Of a DNA stretch of 64,000 bases, positions 45,553 to 52,098 are shown piece after piece. Numbering within the stretch: the stretch's first letter is position 1; each line of letters begins with the position of its first letter. The position numbers were made by a program, and so were the translations under genes. The DNA lies in NCBI GenBank assembly GCA_015064955.1, contig SVRD01000002.1, forward strand, positions 14,188 to 78,187. The letters are read 5' to 3'. The notes beneath the pieces were generated by a model. The model did not search any database and had not been told where the DNA came from. It was given only the letters and a program-made list of their open reading frames with translations. Origin of the DNA: Oscillospiraceae bacterium (GTDB taxonomy: Bacteria; Bacillota; Clostridia; Oscillospirales; CAG-382).

Positions 45553-46641
45553 CTAAAACAATATATGGGCAAGGTAGGTCAATGCGAAAACGCCTGCACC
45601 GACTGCCGCCGTGAGTCCGAAAAGCCATTTCTTATACGCCGATTTATCCATCGGAAGATCGCCGACAAGCTTGCCGGTCTGACCGTTCATCGCAAAGGTA
45701 TATTTTTGGCCGTTCCAGGTGGTATTTAATATCCAGACGGGGAAAAGCGCATATTTCGCCCTGCCGTTTTGGAGCTGAACGCTCGAAAATTCGGGCATAA
45801 CGCTTGTGTATCCCTGCACCGTTGCGGCAAAAGCGTCCTCGGTGCTCTTTTTAATACGAGTATTTGCGCGCTCGATGCTTTGCTCGGCATCGACATCGTA
45901 TTTATCGGCAAGATATCCCGCGAGGTAAGCGGTCTGGAAATCCACTGCCTGCGAAAAATCATAGGGCTCGATGGATTCCATCAAATCGTCCGCCATTTTC
46001 GTGCTTCCGTCGACGGGAACCCGCTCGAATCCGATATTGCCGCCGCGCACTACCGAGAAAAAGCTGGTTTCGGTATAGTTATAATTGCTATCGCTCCAGG
46101 CTCTCACACGGGTCGCCTTGTAGCGAATATTTGCATCGGCATCGGCATCAAAAAGCCAAAACGGAACGTAGAGTCCCTTGATCTCGTTGATATGGTTCTG
46201 ATCCTTGAACACCTTGGGAAGCAACCGCTTTCCCTCGTAATGCTTATTGAGTGCCTTTTTAGCCGCTTCCTTATCGAGCTTGAAGGGGATAACGTAATCG
46301 GGCTTCAGCGCACCGCTGAACTGACCCATCATAACTACGGGGTTTCCGCAGAAGGGGCACTCGGTCGCGCCGACTGTTTCGTCGCCGACGATCTCGCCGC
46401 CGCAAGATTCGCAAGAGTAGACTCTCATTCCCTCGGTCTCCCCCTCGCGCCATTCACAGCCCGCGTTGGTTTCCCAATTCATATTGTCCTCGCCCTCGGC
46501 TTTGAGCACCTCGTCGTAGGATTTAAGCGTTTCTACCTCGAACTCGGTGTCGCAATAGGGACATTTCATATTTTGAGTTTCAACGTCAAATTCGATAGCG
46601 CCGCCGCAGCAGGGGCACTTATATTCCTGTAATGTCGACAA
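45553..46641 (-). CDS. Zinc-ribbon membrane protein (YdjG-like)
   Basis: CPCCGG, CPYC, CESCGG, CPFCG, PD.VIPF, YVPFWLFD, MNGQTGKLVG; TTG start after GAAGGAG. Confidence 0.8.
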   Translation of the reverse strand: MSTLQEYKCPCCGGAIEFDVETQNMKCPYCDTEFEVETLKSYDEVLKAEGEDNMNWETNAGCEWREGETEGMRVYSCESCGGEIVGDETVGATECPFCGNPVVMMGQFSGALKPDYVIPFKLDKEAAKKALNKHYEGKRLLPKVFKDQNHINEIKGLYVPFWLFDADADANIRYKATRVRAWSDSNYNYTETSFFSVVRGGNIGFERVPVDGSTKMADDLMESIEPYDFSQAVDFQTAYLAGYLADKYDVDAEQSIERANTRIKKSTEDAFAATVQGYTSVMPEFSSVQLQNGRAKYALFPVWILNTTWNGQKYTFAMNGQTGKLVGDLPMDKSAYKKWLFGLTAAVGAGVFALTYLAHILF

Positions 46642-46707
46642 ATCATTCACTCCTTCACGCAAGATTCTTCGGACGAAACCGCCCGAAGAATCGCTCAGAT
46701 TATGTGA

Positions 46708-48117
46708 TTATTTAATATCTCCGTTGTCAAAGCGGTCGCCGCATTCGGGACAGAATTTGGGAACTACGGTGTCGTCATCGGGCTCCCAACCGCAGTTACT
46801 GCACTTATATTTGGGTGCGGCTTCGGGCTTTTTTGCGCCGCAATCGGCACAGAATTTACCCTTGTTTACCGCGCCGCAAGCGCATTTCCAACTGTCGTCA
46901 GCCGGTTTTTTCGCGCCGCACTCGGTGCAGAAATTACCGCTCACTGTTGCGCCGCAAGCGCATTTCCAACCGCCGGCTGCCTCGGGCTCGGGCTTCTTTG
47001 CGCCGCATTCGGGGCAGAATTTGCCGCTCGCCGTTGCACCGCAAGCGCATTTCCAAGTGTTTGCCGCCGCCTGAGCTGCCTGCTGAGCCGCCTGCTGTTG
47101 CTGACCCATACCGTAAAACTGCTGAGCCGCATTGAATCCGCCGCCCATAGCGTTGCTTGCCATTCCCAAGCCCATAAAGCCGGTGAGCGCGCCCGCTTCG
47201 TTGGAAGCAGCCGCTTCCATAGCGTTTGCGCTGGCGGTGGTCATCCTGCCCGCCATCATATAAGCGTTGCTGCCGTAGGACATAGATTCTTCCATTTCGT
47301 TGATCTTCTGCATATCCTCTGCAGTCAGCGTAATGGGATTGAGGGCGATATTTTCAACGCTGATACCGCGCTCGTCGTTCCAGTCGGTCTTCAGTGCGTC
47401 GTTCATCGCGCCCTTGAGTTCTCTTGCCTTTGCGGGAAGCTGATCGGGACGCAAGCCAAGCTCGGAAAGCGCGCCCAATGCAGGCTGGAGTGCGTCGATG
47501 AACTCGGTCTTGAGCTGCTCGTCGATCATATCTCTTGTGAATTGATCCGCTACGTTGCCGCAAAGTCTGGTATAGAACAAAAGCGGGTTGGAGATAATAT
47601 AGGAATAGATACCGTTGCATCTTACCTGAACGGTTCTCGACATATTGATCTCTTTGTTGACAACTCTGAACATTATCGGGTTCGGAGTGCCGAATTTATT
47701 GTTGAGAATTTCCTTGGTGTTGAAATAGTAAACGCGCTGATCCTTGCCGGTGTCGCCGCCGAAGGTGAAACGCTTACCGATAGTCTTGAAGGTGTCGATA
47801 ATGCTCTTGCCGAGCTTGCCGGAGAAAAGGCTGGGCTCGGTCGAGGAGTCGTAAACAAATTCGCCGGGCTCTGCACAAAATTCAACAACCTTGCCCTGCT
47901 CGACGATAAGCATACACTGTCCGTCCGCAACCGCGATAACAGAGCCGTTCGAGATGATATTGTCCTCGCCCTTGGTGTTCGAGGATCTCGAGGAAGTGCG
48001 CTTGCTGCCCTTCTTCATAAGTACGTTGTTGTCCAAAGCGTCACAATAGAAAAACTCCTTCCACTGATCAGCCAAGGTGCCGCCAATCGCGCCGCCGATT
48101 GCTTTTATAAGTCCCAT
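46708..48117 (-). CDS. SPFH/band-7 protein with C-terminal tandem zinc ribbons (YdjI-like)
   Basis: LADQWKE, IISNGS, KFGTPNP; three WKCACGA...FCxxCG repeats plus a fourth ribbon. Confidence 0.85.
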   Translation of the reverse strand: MGLIKAIGGAIGGTLADQWKEFFYCDALDNNVLMKKGSKRTSSRSSNTKGEDNIISNGSVIAVADGQCMLIVEQGKVVEFCAEPGEFVYDSSTEPSLFSGKLGKSIIDTFKTIGKRFTFGGDTGKDQRVYYFNTKEILNNKFGTPNPIMFRVVNKEINMSRTVQVRCNGIYSYIISNPLLFYTRLCGNVADQFTRDMIDEQLKTEFIDALQPALGALSELGLRPDQLPAKARELKGAMNDALKTDWNDERGISVENIALNPITLTAEDMQKINEMEESMSYGSNAYMMAGRMTTASANAMEAAASNEAGALTGFMGLGMASNAMGGGFNAAQQFYGMGQQQQAAQQAAQAAANTWKCACGATASGKFCPECGAKKPEPEAAGGWKCACGATVSGNFCTECGAKKPADDSWKCACGAVNKGKFCADCGAKKPEAAPKYKCSNCGWEPDDDTVVPKFCPECGDRFDNGDIK

Positions 48118-48428
48118 AGTCATGTCCCTTTCGTAAATCTATATTTACAAGCACTCCTCATTCGATTCACAAATGAAGCGCGATTGCATTTTACAATAGT
48201 ATTATAACATATTTTTTCAGCAAATCAATGCGTTTCGCTGCCTTTTTTCAACCACTTGGCACGTTTTTTGCCGAATTTTGCGGTTTTTTTGCCAAAAATC
48301 CGCCGCCGTGTGAAAAATTTCCCGCTTTGCCCACCGTGAACAAAGCCTCTGCTGCCGCCGATTTTTTTCAAAAAGGTATTGATTTTTACAAATATATATG
48401 ATAGAATAGCCGAGCGACAAATGAATAT

Positions 48429-48505
48429 GTGGGTGTAGCTCAGTTGGTTAGAGCACTTGCTTGACATGCAAGGGGTCGTTGGTTCAAGTCCATTCATCCA
48501 CACCA
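48429..48505 (+). tRNA. tRNA-Val (anticodon GAC)
   Basis: Acceptor GTGGGTG/CATCCAC, D-arm GCTC/GAGC, anticodon arm CTTGC-TTGACAT-GCAAG, TTCAAGT loop, encoded CCA. Confidence 0.93.
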
Positions 48506-48535
48506 GAAAAAACCTTGTCTATGACAAGGTTTTTT
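48506..48535 (+). terminator. tRNA terminator
   Basis: AAAAAACCTTGTC-tat-GACAAGGTTTTTT. Confidence 0.8.
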
Positions 48536-48730
48536 CAGCTAAATCCACCCTTTCGGGTGGGCTAAATCGCCTTTGGCGGCTAAATTGCCCTTCGGGCAGC
48601 TATATTCACCTCGACGGCGAGTTGGTGGATTTAATTTAGCTGTAAGCGTTAGCGCACAATTTAGCTATCGAGCGAAGCGGGATAATTTCGCTATTGCAGA
48701 GCAATAATTTAGCTAAAAGAAAGGTTTTAG
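48536..48730 (+). other. Multibranched 'fishbone' structured element (RNA or ssDNA) leading into the four-helix-bundle gene
   Basis: 4x GCTA(A/T)AT each followed by a hairpin, then 4x ATTT(A/C)GC each followed by a hairpin. Confidence 0.75.
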
Positions 48731-48732
48731 AT

Positions 48733-49092
48733 ATGGCAGAAAGCATAATGCTCGACAAGGCAAAGGATTTTGCTGTTGAAATAGTAAACCTTTGCCGTAA
48801 TATAAAAGAAACAAAACGTGAAAGCGTTTTGACAAACCAACTTTTGCGTTCGGGAACTTCTATCGGTGCAAACATACATGAGTCAAAGTATGGTCACGGT
48901 ACAGCAGATTTTATCGCAAAAATGCAAATAGCGCTAAAAGAATGTTATGAATCTGAATATTGGCTCGAACTTTTGAATCGCACGGGATATATCCCCGACG
49001 AGCAATATAAATCACTTCAAAACACTTGCGGTTCTATCCGTAGAATGTTGATTTCTTCTATAAACACAACGAAAAGTAATGCGAATAAATAA
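48733..49092 (+). CDS. Four-helix-bundle protein (TIGR02436 / 23S-rRNA-IVP family, Avd-like fold)
   Basis: QLLRSGTSIGANIHE...DFIAKMQIALKECYESEYWLELL. Confidence 0.9.
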   Translation: MAESIMLDKAKDFAVEIVNLCRNIKETKRESVLTNQLLRSGTSIGANIHESKYGHGTADFIAKMQIALKECYESEYWLELLNRTGYIPDEQYKSLQNTCGSIRRMLISSINTTKSNANK

Positions 49093-49109
49093 CCTAAATA
49101 ACAACACAA

Positions 49110-49141
49110 AAACCGATTTGACGTAAAAATCAAATCGGTTT
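49110..49141. terminator. AACCGATTTG hairpin, copy 1
   Basis: AAACCGATTTGA-cgtaaaaa-TCAAATCGGTTT. Confidence 0.7.
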
Positions 49142-49200
49142 CGTGCTTTTTGTTTCTTTGTAGAATTCAATTTTCCAAAAGGCCAACAAATTCTGCAAAA

Positions 49201-50133
49201 CTATGTTTTATGATCAATTTTTGGTACTCTTTTTATCTTGCGGCTAATCCTCGTTATGAATTTTTTTATTGAAAAGGAGATTTGCAAAATACCATAACGT
49301 AATTTATAATCATAATATATTTTTTTCAAAAATGGACGCGAGTGGTTTTCGTATTTGATTCTGTATCGTAAGCACTCTACATTAAAGCGATATAGCGGCT
49401 CATATGTTTGAATAGTTCCCCAGTGCAACCATATCCCCTTCTCCGTCATATCAGCCCAATCGGTTTTATATTTCAACCTATCGTGCAAAATATCCGCTTT
49501 CAAATATGTAAGACATGGATACGCTGCCATCATATGCGGGACTTCATGTATAGCCTTCATGTTGTTCATCGGCATTGCAACGCCTAAAATACACTCGTCC
49601 TTAGATGCCGAGAACGAATGAAAGCGAAGCTGAGAATAATTGTCCGACAATTCCTTGCAGTTTTGGTACATTTTATTGAGACTATCGCTTTTTCTAATAA
49701 AACAAACACCGGCATGAACACGGGTTTTGTATTCCAAATTTTCGCCATATTTTCCGATATCTTCTACGTTATACCAAGTTCCGTATTTGCTGTGGCGATC
49801 GACATTGACACCTATCGCGGAAAAGTCCGTAGCATCCTTAAAAAAATCCCAATATTCATTCAAGTCTCCATATGCCAACGAATCCGCATCAAAGAAAATA
49901 GTTTCATCATATGGGCATAACTTCAATAATAAAAACTTGTCCATAAACGAATGCGTAGATTCGTCGGTAATAACTACATCGTCAAATAGCTTGGTATATT
50001 CATTTTCCTCTTCTGCTATAATAGCAAAAGGGTAACGCTCTTTTGCAAAAAAACGATAAGACATAAGTAAATTGGCCGCAATTTTATAATAATGCTCTTT
50101 TCCTGTTGCAATAGTTATAAAACCCCTTCTCAT
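49201..50133 (-). CDS. GT-A fold (GT8-like) glycosyltransferase, AT-rich
   Basis: GFITIATG...A..L..S, DK..L...PYDETIFFDADS (DxD). Confidence 0.65.
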   Translation of the reverse strand: MRRGFITIATGKEHYYKIAANLLMSYRFFAKERYPFAIIAEEENEYTKLFDDVVITDESTHSFMDKFLLLKLCPYDETIFFDADSLAYGDLNEYWDFFKDATDFSAIGVNVDRHSKYGTWYNVEDIGKYGENLEYKTRVHAGVCFIRKSDSLNKMYQNCKELSDNYSQLRFHSFSASKDECILGVAMPMNNMKAIHEVPHMMAAYPCLTYLKADILHDRLKYKTDWADMTEKGIWLHWGTIQTYEPLYRFNVECLRYRIKYENHSRPFLKKIYYDYKLRYGILQISFSIKKFITRISRKIKRVPKIDHKT

Positions 50134-50275: not shown

Positions 50276-50475
50276 ACATACTGTGGAAAAAGGGGTAGAA
50301 TGAAAGCACAGTAACAAAAGGGAGAATGAACAATGAAAAAAGCGTTGATATTTTTACTTTTGACATGTCTGGTCGCGTCGCTTGCGGCTTGCGGCGGCGG
50401 AGAAAGCGAAAGCTCCTCGAAGGCGGAAGCGGTATCGAGCGAGAGTCCCGCCGAATCGTCCGCGGTATCCGAGCC
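50276..50475 (+). repeat. 200-bp direct repeat, copy 1 (promoter + RBS + lipoprotein signal/linker)
   Basis: About 7 mismatches against 51403-51602. Confidence 0.92.
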
Positions 50476-51367
50476 CGAGGTTAGTGAATCGCCTAACTAC
50501 ACTAGCGAAGTGCGCGAGGCGTTAAAACTTATTGAGGAAGGCAACTATGTAGATGCCTACAAGCTTCTTTATGACCAAAAATCCAATGACGATGCCAAAA
50601 AACTATTAGAAGACTTTATCTGGGTTTATGAAAAAGAAGATTTTGTGTCTTCTTACAGTTATTTCTACCCATATTCCGCCGAGTACATCTATGATGAAAA
50701 CGGAACATTGATCAAAAAGGTTTGCAATAATCTCATATTAGACTCCGTCCTTAATGTTGTTACCGAATACACCTACAACAACGGAAGGTTGATTAAAGAA
50801 ACACAAGTATCCACCCCTGAAAACCCAGATGTTCCTCAATCCACCGAAACCATCGACTATTTCTATGATGAAGCCGGAAGGTTGGTTAAAAGCGTTCATA
50901 CAAACTTCCAAGGTGGTATCGAAACCCGACACTACACGTATAACGAAAACGGAGATTTGATCAAAGAAATCCGTACACATACCGACAATGATGCGACATA
51001 TAATGCAGAGTATACTTACGACAAAAACGGAGATTTGATCGAAGAAGTTTATACAGACTTTTCCGGTACTACGGTGATCAATAACTATTCCTATGCAAGA
51101 AAGGGGCTTTTGGTAAAAGTAGTTTGTTCAGAATCCGAGGATGGCTCGCATACCATGAAAAAGCTCTATGAAATTGAAAAGATATATGACGCAAACGATA
51201 TGTTGTTTGTAGAAATCACGAAATATCCCGACGGCGATACCTCTGATTCCAAATACACCTACGACGAAAATGGAAATTTGATCAAACTCGTATATACCGA
51301 CGATAACCGCGATACAAGAACCTACGAATACAGCGAATACAAACTATTTTATAACCCCAAGAAATAA
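50333..51367 (+). CDS. Lipoprotein with YD/RHS-like beta-strand repeats
   Basis: Lipobox LAAC; Ser/Glu linker; repeated YxYDENGxLIK. Confidence 0.8.
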   Translation: MKKALIFLLLTCLVASLAACGGGESESSSKAEAVSSESPAESSAVSEPEVSESPNYTSEVREALKLIEEGNYVDAYKLLYDQKSNDDAKKLLEDFIWVYEKEDFVSSYSYFYPYSAEYIYDENGTLIKKVCNNLILDSVLNVVTEYTYNNGRLIKETQVSTPENPDVPQSTETIDYFYDEAGRLVKSVHTNFQGGIETRHYTYNENGDLIKEIRTHTDNDATYNAEYTYDKNGDLIEEVYTDFSGTTVINNYSYARKGLLVKVVCSESEDGSHTMKKLYEIEKIYDANDMLFVEITKYPDGDTSDSKYTYDENGNLIKLVYTDDNRDTRTYEYSEYKLFYNPKK

Positions 51368-51402: not shown

Positions 51403-51602
51403 ACATACTGTGGAAAAAGGGGTAGAATGAAAGCACAGTAACAAAAGGAAGAATGAACAATGAAAAAAGCGTTGATATTTATACTTTTGACATGTCTGGT
51501 CGCGTCGCTTGCGGCTTGCGGTGGCGGAGAGAGCGAAAACTCCTCGAAGGCGGAACCGGTATCAAGCGAGAGTCCCGCCGAATCGTCCGCGGTATCCGAG
51601 CC
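51403..51602 (+). repeat. 200-bp direct repeat, copy 2
   Basis: Near-identical to 50276-50475, but the -35 reads GTTACA instead of TTGACA. Confidence 0.92.
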
Positions 51603-52098
51603 TATTTCGGAATCCGAAAGCTCGGTCGCTGACGAATCGAGCGAAATCGTCGGCGAGGAAAGCGAAAACGTATCCGAACCCGAAGCAAGCGAACCCGAAG
51701 CAAGCGAACCCGAAGCAAGCGAACCCGAGGAATTTGACGTCGGCACGCTTATCGGCAGCTGGAAGCGGATCGGTGTCGAGGTCGAGGGCGACGTGAACGA
51801 CGGCGGCAACTGCACGATCACCATCACCGGCACGAGCAAGGACGACTTGAAGATCAGCTACGACGACAAGGACTTCACCGACAATTCATTTTCGGACAAG
51901 ACGGTTACGATCGTCGACAGCGGAAGCGACACCGATCTTTCAGAGGGCGAATGGTACGCGGTCATCGACCACGTCGGACCGTTTGAAACCACCTATGATT
52001 TCGAAATCGCAGAGGACGGAACGCTTGTATTTTACAACAACTTTGAAATCGACGGCGCGCCTGCCATAAGCGTCGAAATCTTCGAGAAGGCAGAATAA
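51460..52098 (+). CDS. Acidic lipoprotein (lipocalin-like C-terminus by inference)
   Basis: Same signal/lipobox as 50333; EPEAS repeats; LIGSWK motif. Confidence 0.78.
   Translation: MKKALIFILLTCLVASLAACGGGESENSSKAEPVSSESPAESSAVSEPISESESSVADESSEIVGEESENVSEPEASEPEASEPEASEPEEFDVGTLIGSWKRIGVEVEGDVNDGGNCTITITGTSKDDLKISYDDKDFTDNSFSDKTVTIVDSGSDTDLSEGEWYAVIDHVGPFETTYDFEIAEDGTLVFYNNFEIDGAPAISVEIFEKAE
51675..51728 (+). repeat. In-frame 15-bp tandem repeat (EPEAS x3.6)
   Basis: CGAACCCGAAGCAAG x3 plus a partial unit. Confidence 0.9.

Follow-up and report, generated by a model that had tools for sequence, protein, structure and literature searches.

The 64,000-nt stretch analysed here (the window) is part of a metagenome-assembled genome (MAG) of an Oscillospiraceae bacterium (1.76 Mb, 82% completeness), whose relatives carry titles such as Oscillospiraceae and Acutalibacteraceae. 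Positions 48506-49092 of the window are best read as one gene-bearing copy of a dispersed element that consists of two inverted arrays of a family-specific heptamer and a gene for a small four-helix-bundle (4HB) protein with an Avd-like fold. We propose that the element is a selfish cassette which settles after terminators and whose heptamers are read by the encoded Avd-like pentamer; from the sequence comparisons described below, a probability of about one half is given to this proposal.

An E-value scan of Rfam matched positions 48536-48610 to the Gut-1 motif (RF01706) over the full model length (1-77) with 40.4 bits and an E-value of 4e-6. The gathering cut-off of 50 bits is missed because the heptamer is GCUAAAU in the window and GUGAAAU in the model. 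The alignment to the model follows the Gut-1 plan, in which a recurring conserved heptamer separates three short hairpins, and the first unit and the centre segment of the window copy are nearly identical to those of canonical Gut-1 copies. In the whole genome, 51 Gut-1 matches were found at 33 loci; 23 exceed the cut-off, the best with 91.4 bits. At ten loci a strong plus-strand match is followed by a weaker minus-strand match about 20 nt further on; the modelled Gut-1 is therefore one arm, that is half, of a two-armed inverted element. An earlier note on this DNA had presented the structure as an undescribed element. That holds in part: the Gut-1 motif, the S23p protein family and one note of heptamers before an S23p open reading frame (ORF), in the Coxiella intervening sequence (IVS; available text of PMC4990558), were already known, whereas the two-armed architecture, the dispersed families, the systematic pairing of gene and array with co-varying words and the cross-phylum pattern appear to be new as far as our searches reach.

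The copies share a common plan: a terminator-shaped hairpin (H0), a left arm of three to five heptamer-hairpin units, a centre segment, a right arm of three to five reverse-complement units and a tail. A detector requiring at least three forward and at least two reverse-complement copies of one 6-mer returned 84 strand- and word-specific matches, corresponding to about two dozen genome loci, and none in a shuffled genome. The heptamers are alike within one element and different between elements (families GTGAAAT, GTGATAT, ATGAAAT, GCTAAAT, GTTATGA and GTGATGT in this genome), and the right arm is always the reverse complement of the left. Tandem copies were observed as three 243-nt units at C15:1-700 (C denotes the contigs of a genome). 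Arrays also lie at contig ends (C5:1-270, C7:315, C10:10966-11102, C15:1-700, C31:24592-24685 and C32:24206-24585), which makes the copy counts minimum values; breaks in the assembly of these MAGs are probably often due to the element.

The reverse complementarity of the 7-mers in the two arms, described earlier for the window, was true in every family seen. The two most repeated 7-mer families were picked independently in each of 122 elements. The second was the reverse complement of the first at all seven positions in 43 elements and at six or more in 69, compared with 64 and 280, respectively, of 2422 permuted partners. Agreement in direct orientation at 7/7 was found in 2/122, and the exact reverse-complement cases span 31 distinct 7-mers.

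Arrays and 4HB genes are linked. Each of the three 4HB genes of the genome lies immediately after an array, and the heptamer differs between the three. With one mismatch per heptamer allowed, at least three forward and at least three reverse-complement heptamers were present upstream of 80 of 102 Clostridial 4HB genes and in 9/150 random windows; when exact copies were required, 34/102 and 0/150 remained. Of the 80 loci that had been taken from genome contigs, ten were left out, two for their short upstream regions (L078 and L139; L denotes the loci compared) and eight because the matches do not start at residue 1 (L109, L112, L121, L125, L126, L127, L145 and L150). The link between array and gene proposed from the single locus is accordingly general. 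A relative that is 98% complete (G011) has a Gut-1 match upstream of six of its seven full-length 4HB genes and contiguous heptamers, after a tRNA, at the seventh; for each of its three main solo families, TGAAATC (seven copies), GTGATAT (about 20) and ATGAATT (one), this genome also contains a gene-linked copy. In a set of 60 relatives, Gut-1 and 4HB genes were found together in 35 genomes, Gut-1 only in eight, 4HB only in three and neither in 14 (9, 2, 2 and 11 when restricted to the 24 other families), counts limited by the non-independence of the relatives and by the Gut-1 model, which recognizes only part of the heptamer families. Contiguous heptamers occur in some relatives (L064, L065/66/68 and L130-L142), so that the spacer hairpins are dispensable.

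The heptamer word also changes with the protein subfamily, a co-divergence that appears to be new. The full heptamer (7/7) is shared by 101/150 locus pairs at a protein identity of 80% or more, by 64/201 at 70-80%, by 41/388 at 60-70% and by 18/1914 at 50-60%.

These results bear on the possibility that Gut-1, in its full two-armed form, is an independent trans-acting small RNA gene and that the 4HB genes just happen to occupy the places it prefers, behind terminators and tRNAs. The motif was put forward as a non-coding RNA because of covariation seen in gut metagenomes (Weinberg et al., 2010; available text of PMC2864571), its hairpins covary strongly (see below) and about 30 copies per genome lie mostly in the 3' regions of same-strand genes. 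A single trans-acting RNA would not be expected to exist as six or more heptamer families in one genome, nor would its hairpins be dispensable in relatives; the 3/3 linkage to 4HB genes is far above chance for 33 sites among about 1,700 genes (a rough estimate, uncounted), and most copies begin behind a terminator-shaped hairpin without a promoter of their own. We therefore regard this explanation as very doubtful.

Ten of the 33 loci in the genome start 31-44 nt past a same-strand tRNA and at least 13 others 21-69 nt past the end of an ORF (its stop codon) on the same strand; the next gene on the far side of the array may have either orientation. The tRNA linkage is not obligatory, most of the other loci following ORFs. 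Turnover was followed at the tRNA-Val(GAC) gene upstream of the window element, a 77-nt gene that is 100% identical in 30 congeners, 27 of them with at least 120 nt of 3' flank (L290, L294 and L303 have no usable flank). The site carries a plain terminator in 11 of the 27, a GCTAAAT cassette with its gene in three and, in 13, arrays without a gene that represent six or more heptamer families and are in part inverted or truncated. Since empty, filled and other-family states occur at one orthologous site, the element turns over there. The empty tRNA sites that had been sought do exist, and the idea of a tRNA-targeted mobile unit is kept to the extent that the element behaves as a turnover-prone insert at tRNA 3' ends. 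In the window the element starts directly 3' of ...TTTTTTCA, a junction found in other copies as well, and arrays at the tRNA-Val site begin directly after ...TTTTCA. Comparison of filled and empty sites by eye showed that the junction of ...TTTTCA and heptamer recurs and did not identify a target-site duplication. The sequence of the 3' arm of hairpin 1 recurs in the centre segment. Decay was also seen: a decayed 4HB start stands by an array in L188 and a 4HB remnant upstream of an array in L072. On the other side of the tRNA, none of the 20 orthologue loci of the upstream neighbour gene (window 46708-48123) in relatives (21 loci scanned including its own) showed a tRNA or DNA similarity on that side; synteny therefore ends at this gene.

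Such behaviour would also suit selfish DNA resembling repetitive extragenic palindromes (REPs) or miniature inverted-repeat transposable elements (MITEs), non-autonomous and moved by an unlinked host or transposon enzyme that recognizes hairpinned single-stranded DNA at terminators, with the 4HB gene as a passenger on a promoter-bearing tail. The inverted two-arm design, the extragenic position after genes, the tandem clusters, the breaks at contig ends and the presence of different families at the same tRNA site in sister species all fit, as do the promoter-bearing tails of gene-less copies that drive unrelated genes in L182 and L191. The co-occurring reverse transcriptase (RT) or recombinase that had been sought was not obtained: the single RVT_1 match lies on another contig (C6:23640-24134), and PF01797, the Y1 (IS200/RAYT) transposase family, gave 0 matches in the genome (82% complete). 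That the comparison by eye identified no target-site duplication is a further difficulty, and plain tandem heptamers at 4HB genes in four other phyla and the tracking of the protein clade by the heptamer are left unexplained. We consider this origin improbable to a high degree.

Several side observations concern tRNA 3' ends. In six genomes (G026:C25, G009:C26, G002:C17, G023:C30, G063:C57 and G012:C84), the 3' 44-47 nt of tRNA-Val(GAC) recur without mismatch at a distance of 1.2-13 kb from the complete gene, in five of the six on the same contig. An ORF beginning MANIQVNKRNGK or MASIQEKRKNGK follows soon after tRNA-Val in L275 and L282; its N-terminus, judged by eye, is putatively integrase-like, in which case tRNA-Val would also be an attachment site for integrase-type islands. 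The gene-less array at C17:159265 of the own genome has an apparent tRNA-Ser 3' end alone upstream (ccttctccgCCA, as at C27:67387), where ARAGORN calls no tRNA.

The features of the window locus are given in Table 1. The eight heptamers and the hairpins of the earlier note were all recovered at the positions it had given. Its fourth hairpin (tcacc/ggtgg) exists with another pairing: H4 is best read as TCACC/GGCGA (48606-48610/48616-48620) with one A·C mismatch and is a perfect TCGCC/GGCGA in the orthologues L045 and L046, and GGTGG belongs to the centre segment GGTGGATTTA. Segment X pairs either locally, in H1, or with the centre segment X'long. Both arms lie upstream of the ORF, a single CTAAAT being found after the stop codon, and the last right-arm heptamer ends 19 nt before the ATG; in the relatives L043, L058 and L060, as at the ten plasmid loci described below, complementary termini enclose the ORF. 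Exact GCTAAAT sites are not enriched in the 64-kb window (eight on both strands versus 12.4 expected), and it is their clustering that stands out, with six of the eight within 176 nt. The RNA fold of 48506-48745 has a z-score of -5.19. No rRNA match was found in 48000-49400, the element sitting 1 nt past the tRNA-Val terminator hairpin.

Table 1. Features of the element and its flanks (window positions, 5' to 3').
Feature	Position	Strand	Score
Sigma70-like promoter of tRNA-Val, TTGATT-17-TAGAAT, TG-extended	48379-48407	+	
tRNA-Val(GAC), encoded CCA end	48429-48505	+	66.4 bits
H0, perfect 14-bp hairpin between A-run and T-run (bidirectional terminator shape)	48506-48536	+	
Left arm, Rfam Gut-1-like part	48538-48623	+	
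Left-arm heptamers GCTAAAT	48538, 48561, 48579	+	
Left-arm heptamer GCTATAT	48599	+	
Left-arm hairpin H1	48545-48560	+	
Left-arm hairpin H2	48568-48578	+	
Left-arm hairpin H3	48586-48598	+	
Left-arm hairpin H4	48606-48621	+	
X (TAAATCCACC), heptamer 1 and 5' arm of H1	48540-48549	+	
Centre segment X'long (GGTGGATTTA), 10 nt, complementary to X	48624-48633	+	
Right arm	48634-48730	+	
Right-arm heptamers ATTTAGC (reverse complement)	48634, 48659, 48707	+	
Right-arm heptamer ATTTCGC (reverse complement)	48685	+	
Right-arm hairpin H5	48641-48658	+	
Right-arm hairpin H6	48666-48684	+	
Right-arm hairpin H7	48692-48706	+	
Right-arm hairpin H8	48714-48730	+	
4HB gene, 119 aa, TIGR02436/PF05635 (23S_rRNA_IVP, 'S23p'), Avd-like fold	48733-49092 (ATG 48733)	+	
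Terminator-like hairpin 3' of 4HB gene (scored on both strands)	49110-49141	+	

Covariation was analysed by aligning eight elements of the GCTAAAT family, taken from separate genomes; six of the elements encode proteins 82-91% identical to that of the window. The eight heptamer blocks are essentially invariant in this alignment, which has a mean column identity of 56%, and H1, H2, H5, H6 and H7 contain three to five compensatory pairs each. Over the whole structure, 22 pairs show changes on both sides, compared with 12.3 in shuffles, none of 500 of which reached 22; sliding the partners lowers the pairing from 89.8% to 24-51%. The rungs formed by the heptamers of the two arms are invariant within the family and therefore uninformative there, their support coming from the comparison between families. 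The pairing of X with X'long is conserved as well (4/10 pairs compensatory, 96.2% of cells paired); as it shares its 5' strand with H1, two mutually exclusive pairings are both conserved. Together with the rungs it would form a pseudoknot with no linker from the centre to the first right heptamer, and the two are therefore treated as alternatives. With RNA parameters the X:X'long fold of the window RNA has an energy of -76.8 kcal/mol. The loop of H8 (GAAAGG) is the Shine-Dalgarno (SD) sequence of the 4HB gene, as first reported for the window; with 56.8% of cells paired in the orthologues, a conserved SD-in-loop translational operator was rejected.

The loops were examined in 197 unique left-arm and 216 unique right-arm spacers. 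Read forward, left-arm loops are UUC (42), UGC (12) and UUGC (9), with no GNRA, and their reverse complements contain GAA (43) and 22 GNRA; right-arm loops read forward are GAA (28), GUAA (14) and GCA (14), with 27 GNRA, and one GNRA is found in reverse complement. The folding energies follow the same pattern (left arm: -519 kcal/mol forward and -561 kcal/mol reverse, with seven and nine G-U pairs; right arm: -891 and -820 kcal/mol, with 22 and 11). Loop polarity, energies and G-U counts being mirrored, the arms are true inverted copies down to the loop type, and a transcript crossing the element looks the same in either direction, with no strand favoured. The notion of one RNA strand optimized throughout was dropped, as loop classes, G-U counts and energies prefer no single strand; three readings are left: both arms may be recognized in inverted orientation, either strand may fold, or the two arms may act through opposite strands. 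The mirrored loop types speak further against an independent RNA gene. In favour of REP- or MITE-like DNA, GAA triloops of the GCGAAGC type, a mini-hairpin that is exceptionally stable in DNA, are common, though on opposite strands in the two arms, and the fold with heptamer rungs and protruding hairpins (the fishbone) is essentially the minimum-free-energy (MFE) structure with DNA parameters (-53.0 versus -53.8 kcal/mol), near-optimal only there.

As had been noted before, the gene in the window has no separate promoter: no sigma70-like promoter was found between the tRNA promoter and the ATG, none inside the element, none from element to ATG and none running leftward from the start of the gene. 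The one other promoter-like site that precedes the array on this strand is a weaker 9-of-12 match at 48289-48318. The last heptamer ends 19 nt or less before the start codon at about 33 of 80 parsed loci, as it does in the window. A sigma70-like promoter stands between array and gene at 26/80 loci (21/500 random windows); in 24 of these 26 its -35 element begins between -4 and +8 relative to the last heptamer. An RNA operator in the 5' untranslated region (UTR) consequently cannot be the general mechanism. At L077 (TTGACT-17-TAGAAT) and L075 the sigma70 promoter lies directly upstream of the left arm, in place of the tRNA, an arrangement that favours an independent RNA gene. The promoter-bearing tails of gene-less copies precede the unrelated genes of L182 and L191 mentioned above and the decayed 4HB start of L188.

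A ~90-nt conserved unit (GGGTTTGGGC-loop-GCCCA, then GCATTTGT-loop-ACAAATGCGATGCCGG...) was noticed 3' of the promoter-like tail in gene-less arrays of the GTGATAT and ATGAAAT types. It has seven copies in the own genome (C2, C4, C15, C16, C18, C20 and C25), of which that at C20:81153 corresponds to about position 66966, just outside the window, and recurs in the relatives L190, L192, L199, L210, L211 and L214. It contains two covarying small hairpins, matches no Rfam family and may represent a small RNA or a leader expressed from the tail of the element.

The array might also be understood from its structure alone. The inverted arrays would then form a segmented double-stranded RNA stem in read-through RNA, at which RNase III or other host factors cut or stall and which insulates the neighbouring genes from the insert, as happens in 23S rRNA IVSs; the heptamer period would be a by-product of replication slippage, and the protein would not read the heptamers. 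The IVS of Coxiella has a 28-bp (4 x 7) stem that is cut by RNase III and whose authors rate the RNA above the protein (available text of PMC4990558), long heptanucleotide repeats are reportedly common and ascribed to slippage (available text of PMC4679880), Type-A relatives have an ORF between inverted arrays inside operons, and gene-less arrays persist in some genomes in which no 4HB gene was detected. Slippage, however, cannot homogenize the 7-mers alone, and the roughly eight heptamers of a hairpin-spaced element are identical although its hairpins all differ, and change jointly from family to family. Duplication of whole units cannot explain the identical heptamers, because the hairpins within an element differ, and neither can a pairwise constraint on the rungs, because each rung could drift alone. 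With the promoter downstream of both arms at 26/80 loci and the strong terminator shape of H0 upstream, the stem may be little transcribed, and the mirrored loop polarity is not that of a structure optimized on one RNA strand. This explanation is held to be unlikely. A reader acting in trans and differing between families can explain the constancy of the heptamer; the only family-specific linked gene being that of the 4HB protein, sites the size of a protomer are favoured.

The protein belongs to a known family. Its sequence matches TIGR02436 with 114.2 bits (cut-off 24), PF05635 with 101.5 bits (cut-off 33.8) and PDB entry 2rld with an E-value of 1.7e-32. An AlphaFold2 model (pLDDT 95.5) consists of four helices forming a four-helix bundle. 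Foldseek aligned this model to BT_0352 (2rld_B; TM-scores 0.92/0.97, 51% identity), to Xcc0516 (2gsc; TM-score 0.72-0.78) and to Avd (4dwl_D; TMq 0.79, TMt 0.87, root-mean-square deviation 1.9 Å, 13% identity, E = 0.064), and also to the Avd chains of the ribonucleoprotein (RNP) of a diversity-generating retroelement (DGR; 8UB7), so that the Avd-like fold predicted from the letters is borne out by the model. The family motif GxxRxxxSxxxNxxE (PMC3936711) is present in a 20-sequence alignment, with R39, S43 and N47 nearly invariant and E50 invariant; the lead residue in the window is Q36, not G. The entries 2rld and 2gsc contain five chains each, the Xanthomonas homologue is a homopentameric toroid (available text of PMC4990558), and Avd is a positively charged pentamer with a basic barrel and a defined Avd-binding RNA element. 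By analogy, the window protein is probably pentameric. Membership of a DGR was rejected, as no RT is adjacent and the neighbouring ORFs in the window are unrelated.

In the cassette that we propose, the arrays would settle immediately 3' of terminator hairpins, in the window that of tRNA-Val. The heptamers would be the recognition units of the protein encoded beside them, one for each protomer and typically four per arm (the mode in both arms, with 47 and 50 of 98 elements). The two arms could pair as a stem built of 7-bp segments (the rungs), with the spacer hairpins protruding from it, and binding would control or protect the cassette, either through autoregulation of the abutting promoter or ribosome-binding site (RBS) or through RNP formation and processing of read-through RNA. 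Gene-less copies would be decayed or non-autonomous derivatives. We infer the binding of the heptamers by the protein, in an RNA or a DNA form, and the spread of copies from the anatomy, linkage and site polymorphism described above. The Clostridial cassette would be an elaboration of a much wider plan: TIGR02436/S23p genes, those of 23S rRNA IVSs among them, that are flanked or preceded by tandem 7- or 8-mers.

A number of observations weigh against this proposal. Physical linkage alone also predicts co-divergence of gene and array. Gene-less arrays occur in 8/60 genomes in which no 4HB gene was found (for instance 11 Gut-1 matches in G030, at 85% completeness), and the GTGATAT and ATGAAAT solo families of the own genome have no gene-linked copy there (82% complete). 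The third right-arm heptamer is ATTTCGC or ATTTTGC in 4/8 members of the GCTAAAT family with the left side uncompensated, giving a non-standard pair in three and G-U in one (pair 47-179). On constrained folding of the window RNA, the fishbone (-77.6 kcal/mol) is 8 kcal/mol worse than the MFE structure (-85.7 kcal/mol). The spacing of the heptamers is irregular (16-26 nt, or 7), which disfavours phased binding to plain duplex DNA, and as the array lies in the 5' UTR at some loci and upstream of the promoter at others, one mode must cover both. The known Avd works with an RT, and the RT match of the genome is on another contig. Finally, the authors of the Coxiella study judge that S23p is probably not made and that its ORF is decaying (available text of PMC4990558).

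Beyond the Clostridia a small sample was inspected (25 and ten loci), partly by eye. In the order reached through a MAG titled Victivallaceae, seven of 25 full-length 4HB genes have 8-15 contiguous 7- or 8-mers before the RBS; the others have mostly shorter arrays, five being of the hairpin type and three showing nothing obvious. Leaving out the five hairpin-type loci, at least three reverse-complement copies were present within 200 nt downstream in 15/20, by a permissive and uncontrolled criterion. On named plasmids, all ten 4HB genes have tandem heptamers upstream and the reverse complement downstream, and several sit between the genes of operons. These plasmids belong to Spirochaetota, Cyanobacteriota, Bacteroidota and Chloroflexota (Treponema, Euhalothece, Bernardetia, Chondrinema, three Nostoc strains, Planktothrix, Gloeocapsa and Chlorohelix). 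Two loci of this sample are worth recording. The Treponema saccharophilum plasmid pTS1 (L263) has the longest example seen, more than 25 tandem GAAAG-rich heptamers followed by a reverse-complement array upstream of the 4HB gene and a further array downstream. In Gloeocapsa (L271) and Chlorohelix (L272), from two phyla, a 4HB gene with TTTTAGA-type heptamers lies between a DUF1156 gene and a Swt1-family HEPN gene, an insert that may travel with this gene pair or target it.

Taken more widely, TIGR02436/S23p pentamers could be sequence-specific readers of tandem 7-8-nt repeats, each paralogue with its own word, in a selfish array-plus-reader module found across phyla; we put this forward tentatively, as possible rather than probable. 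Such a module would have reached positions past terminators, gaps between the genes of operons and helices of rRNA, and would account for Gut-1, the S23p-type IVSs and, in cyanobacteria, Bacteroidota and Beggiatoaceae, at least part of the unexplained intergenic heptamer arrays; the fishbone of the Clostridia, with its spacers looped out and its 7-bp rungs stacked, would be a new nucleic-acid architecture for presenting the sites. The S23p/IVP/TIGR02436 family is large and widespread, with structures solved since 2006-2007, and outside the Avd of DGRs we know of no function for it. Gut-1 has been an orphan RNA motif since 2010, and the origins of 23S rRNA IVSs and of intergenic heptamer arrays are open. 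These four loose ends would be tied to one proposal, that each repeat word is matched to the small protein of the neighbouring gene, for which the several families of one genome provide natural swap controls. If binding is specific, the proteins would be compact orthogonal nucleic-acid readers and the common assembly breaks and the variation of tRNA flanks in gut Clostridia would be explained. Even with non-specific binding, the element is a multi-copy terminator-seeking repeat, half-modelled by Rfam and missed by genome annotators.

Some neighbouring genes of the window may be mentioned. The 471-aa ORF divergent from the tRNA (46708-48123, minus strand) encodes four C-terminal tandem zinc-ribbon-like repeats (WKCACGA..GKFCPECGAKKP), and the adjoining ORF (45553-46662, minus strand) also has CxxC pairs at its start. 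The neighbouring lipoprotein-like ORFs at 50333-51367 and 51460-52098 (plus strand) share a near-identical signal and lipobox N-terminus (MKKALIF.LLTCLVASLAACGGGESE), and N-termini of this kind recur beside arrays elsewhere in the genome.

Known systems resemble the element in different parts. REP/REPIN sequences with their RAYT genes are short palindromic units in inverted doublets that lie after genes, in clusters and in several families per genome, each with a single-copy gene. The gene of the window encodes a 119-aa helical bundle without a known nuclease motif, and the units are heptamer-plus-hairpin arrays instead of single palindromes; a RAYT/IS200 partner was not found by the PF01797 search of the 82% complete genome. 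Avd has the same fold and differs in sequence as well as in its context of an adjacent RT and a template/variable repeat pair, neither of which accompanies the window gene.

Gut-1 has in common with the window the left arm, with its three hairpins separated by a conserved heptamer, and a source in gut metagenomes; its model has one arm, the window element two. The inverted arm, the pairing of the centre, the terminator or tRNA context and the 4HB gene are not mentioned in the available text of PMC2864571, whose Additional file 1 may already note such features. As far as the available text of PMC4990558 goes, the IVS of Coxiella burnetii has two or three GACAGAT repeats, their number varying between strains, before the S23p ORF, and RNase III cuts its terminal stem at the start of the first repeat; S23p-type IVSs are cited there from Leptospira, Brucella and Xanthomonas too. 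Protein family, tandem heptamers of variable number directly before the ORF, complementary termini forming a stem and the interpretation as a selfish element are all shared with the window. The IVS, however, lies in a 23S rRNA helix and not after a tRNA, and encloses its ORF in the stem-loop, whereas both window arms are upstream; it lacks the spacer hairpins and the family of gene-less copies that go with the window element, and its cleavage by RNase III has been demonstrated, the window element being known from sequence alone.

TAACTGA repeats of Beggiatoaceae, Cyanobacteria and Bacteroidetes are tandem heptamers just upstream of start codons, patchily distributed across phyla rich in 4HB genes, and heptanucleotides are reportedly the commonest long simple-sequence repeats, ascribed to slippage (Mrazek, 2007, cited in PMC4679880); the terms '23S' and 'helix bundle' do not occur in the available text of PMC4679880. 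The 4HB genes of Nostoc, Planktothrix and Euhalothece read here are flanked by tandem heptamer arrays. For a published link between heptamer arrays and the 4HB family, a search outside which most subscription journals lay returned the single Coxiella observation. The short tandemly repeated repetitive (STRR) heptamers of cyanobacteria are intergenic tandem repeats of the same unit length. A functional parallel is the omega repressor of pSM19035, an oligomerizing reader that cooperatively recognizes contiguous 7-bp operator units, direct and inverted, beside promoters. It has a ribbon-helix-helix fold, no spacer hairpins and no dispersed repeat family, and serves as a model of how the contiguous-heptamer relatives of the element might work.

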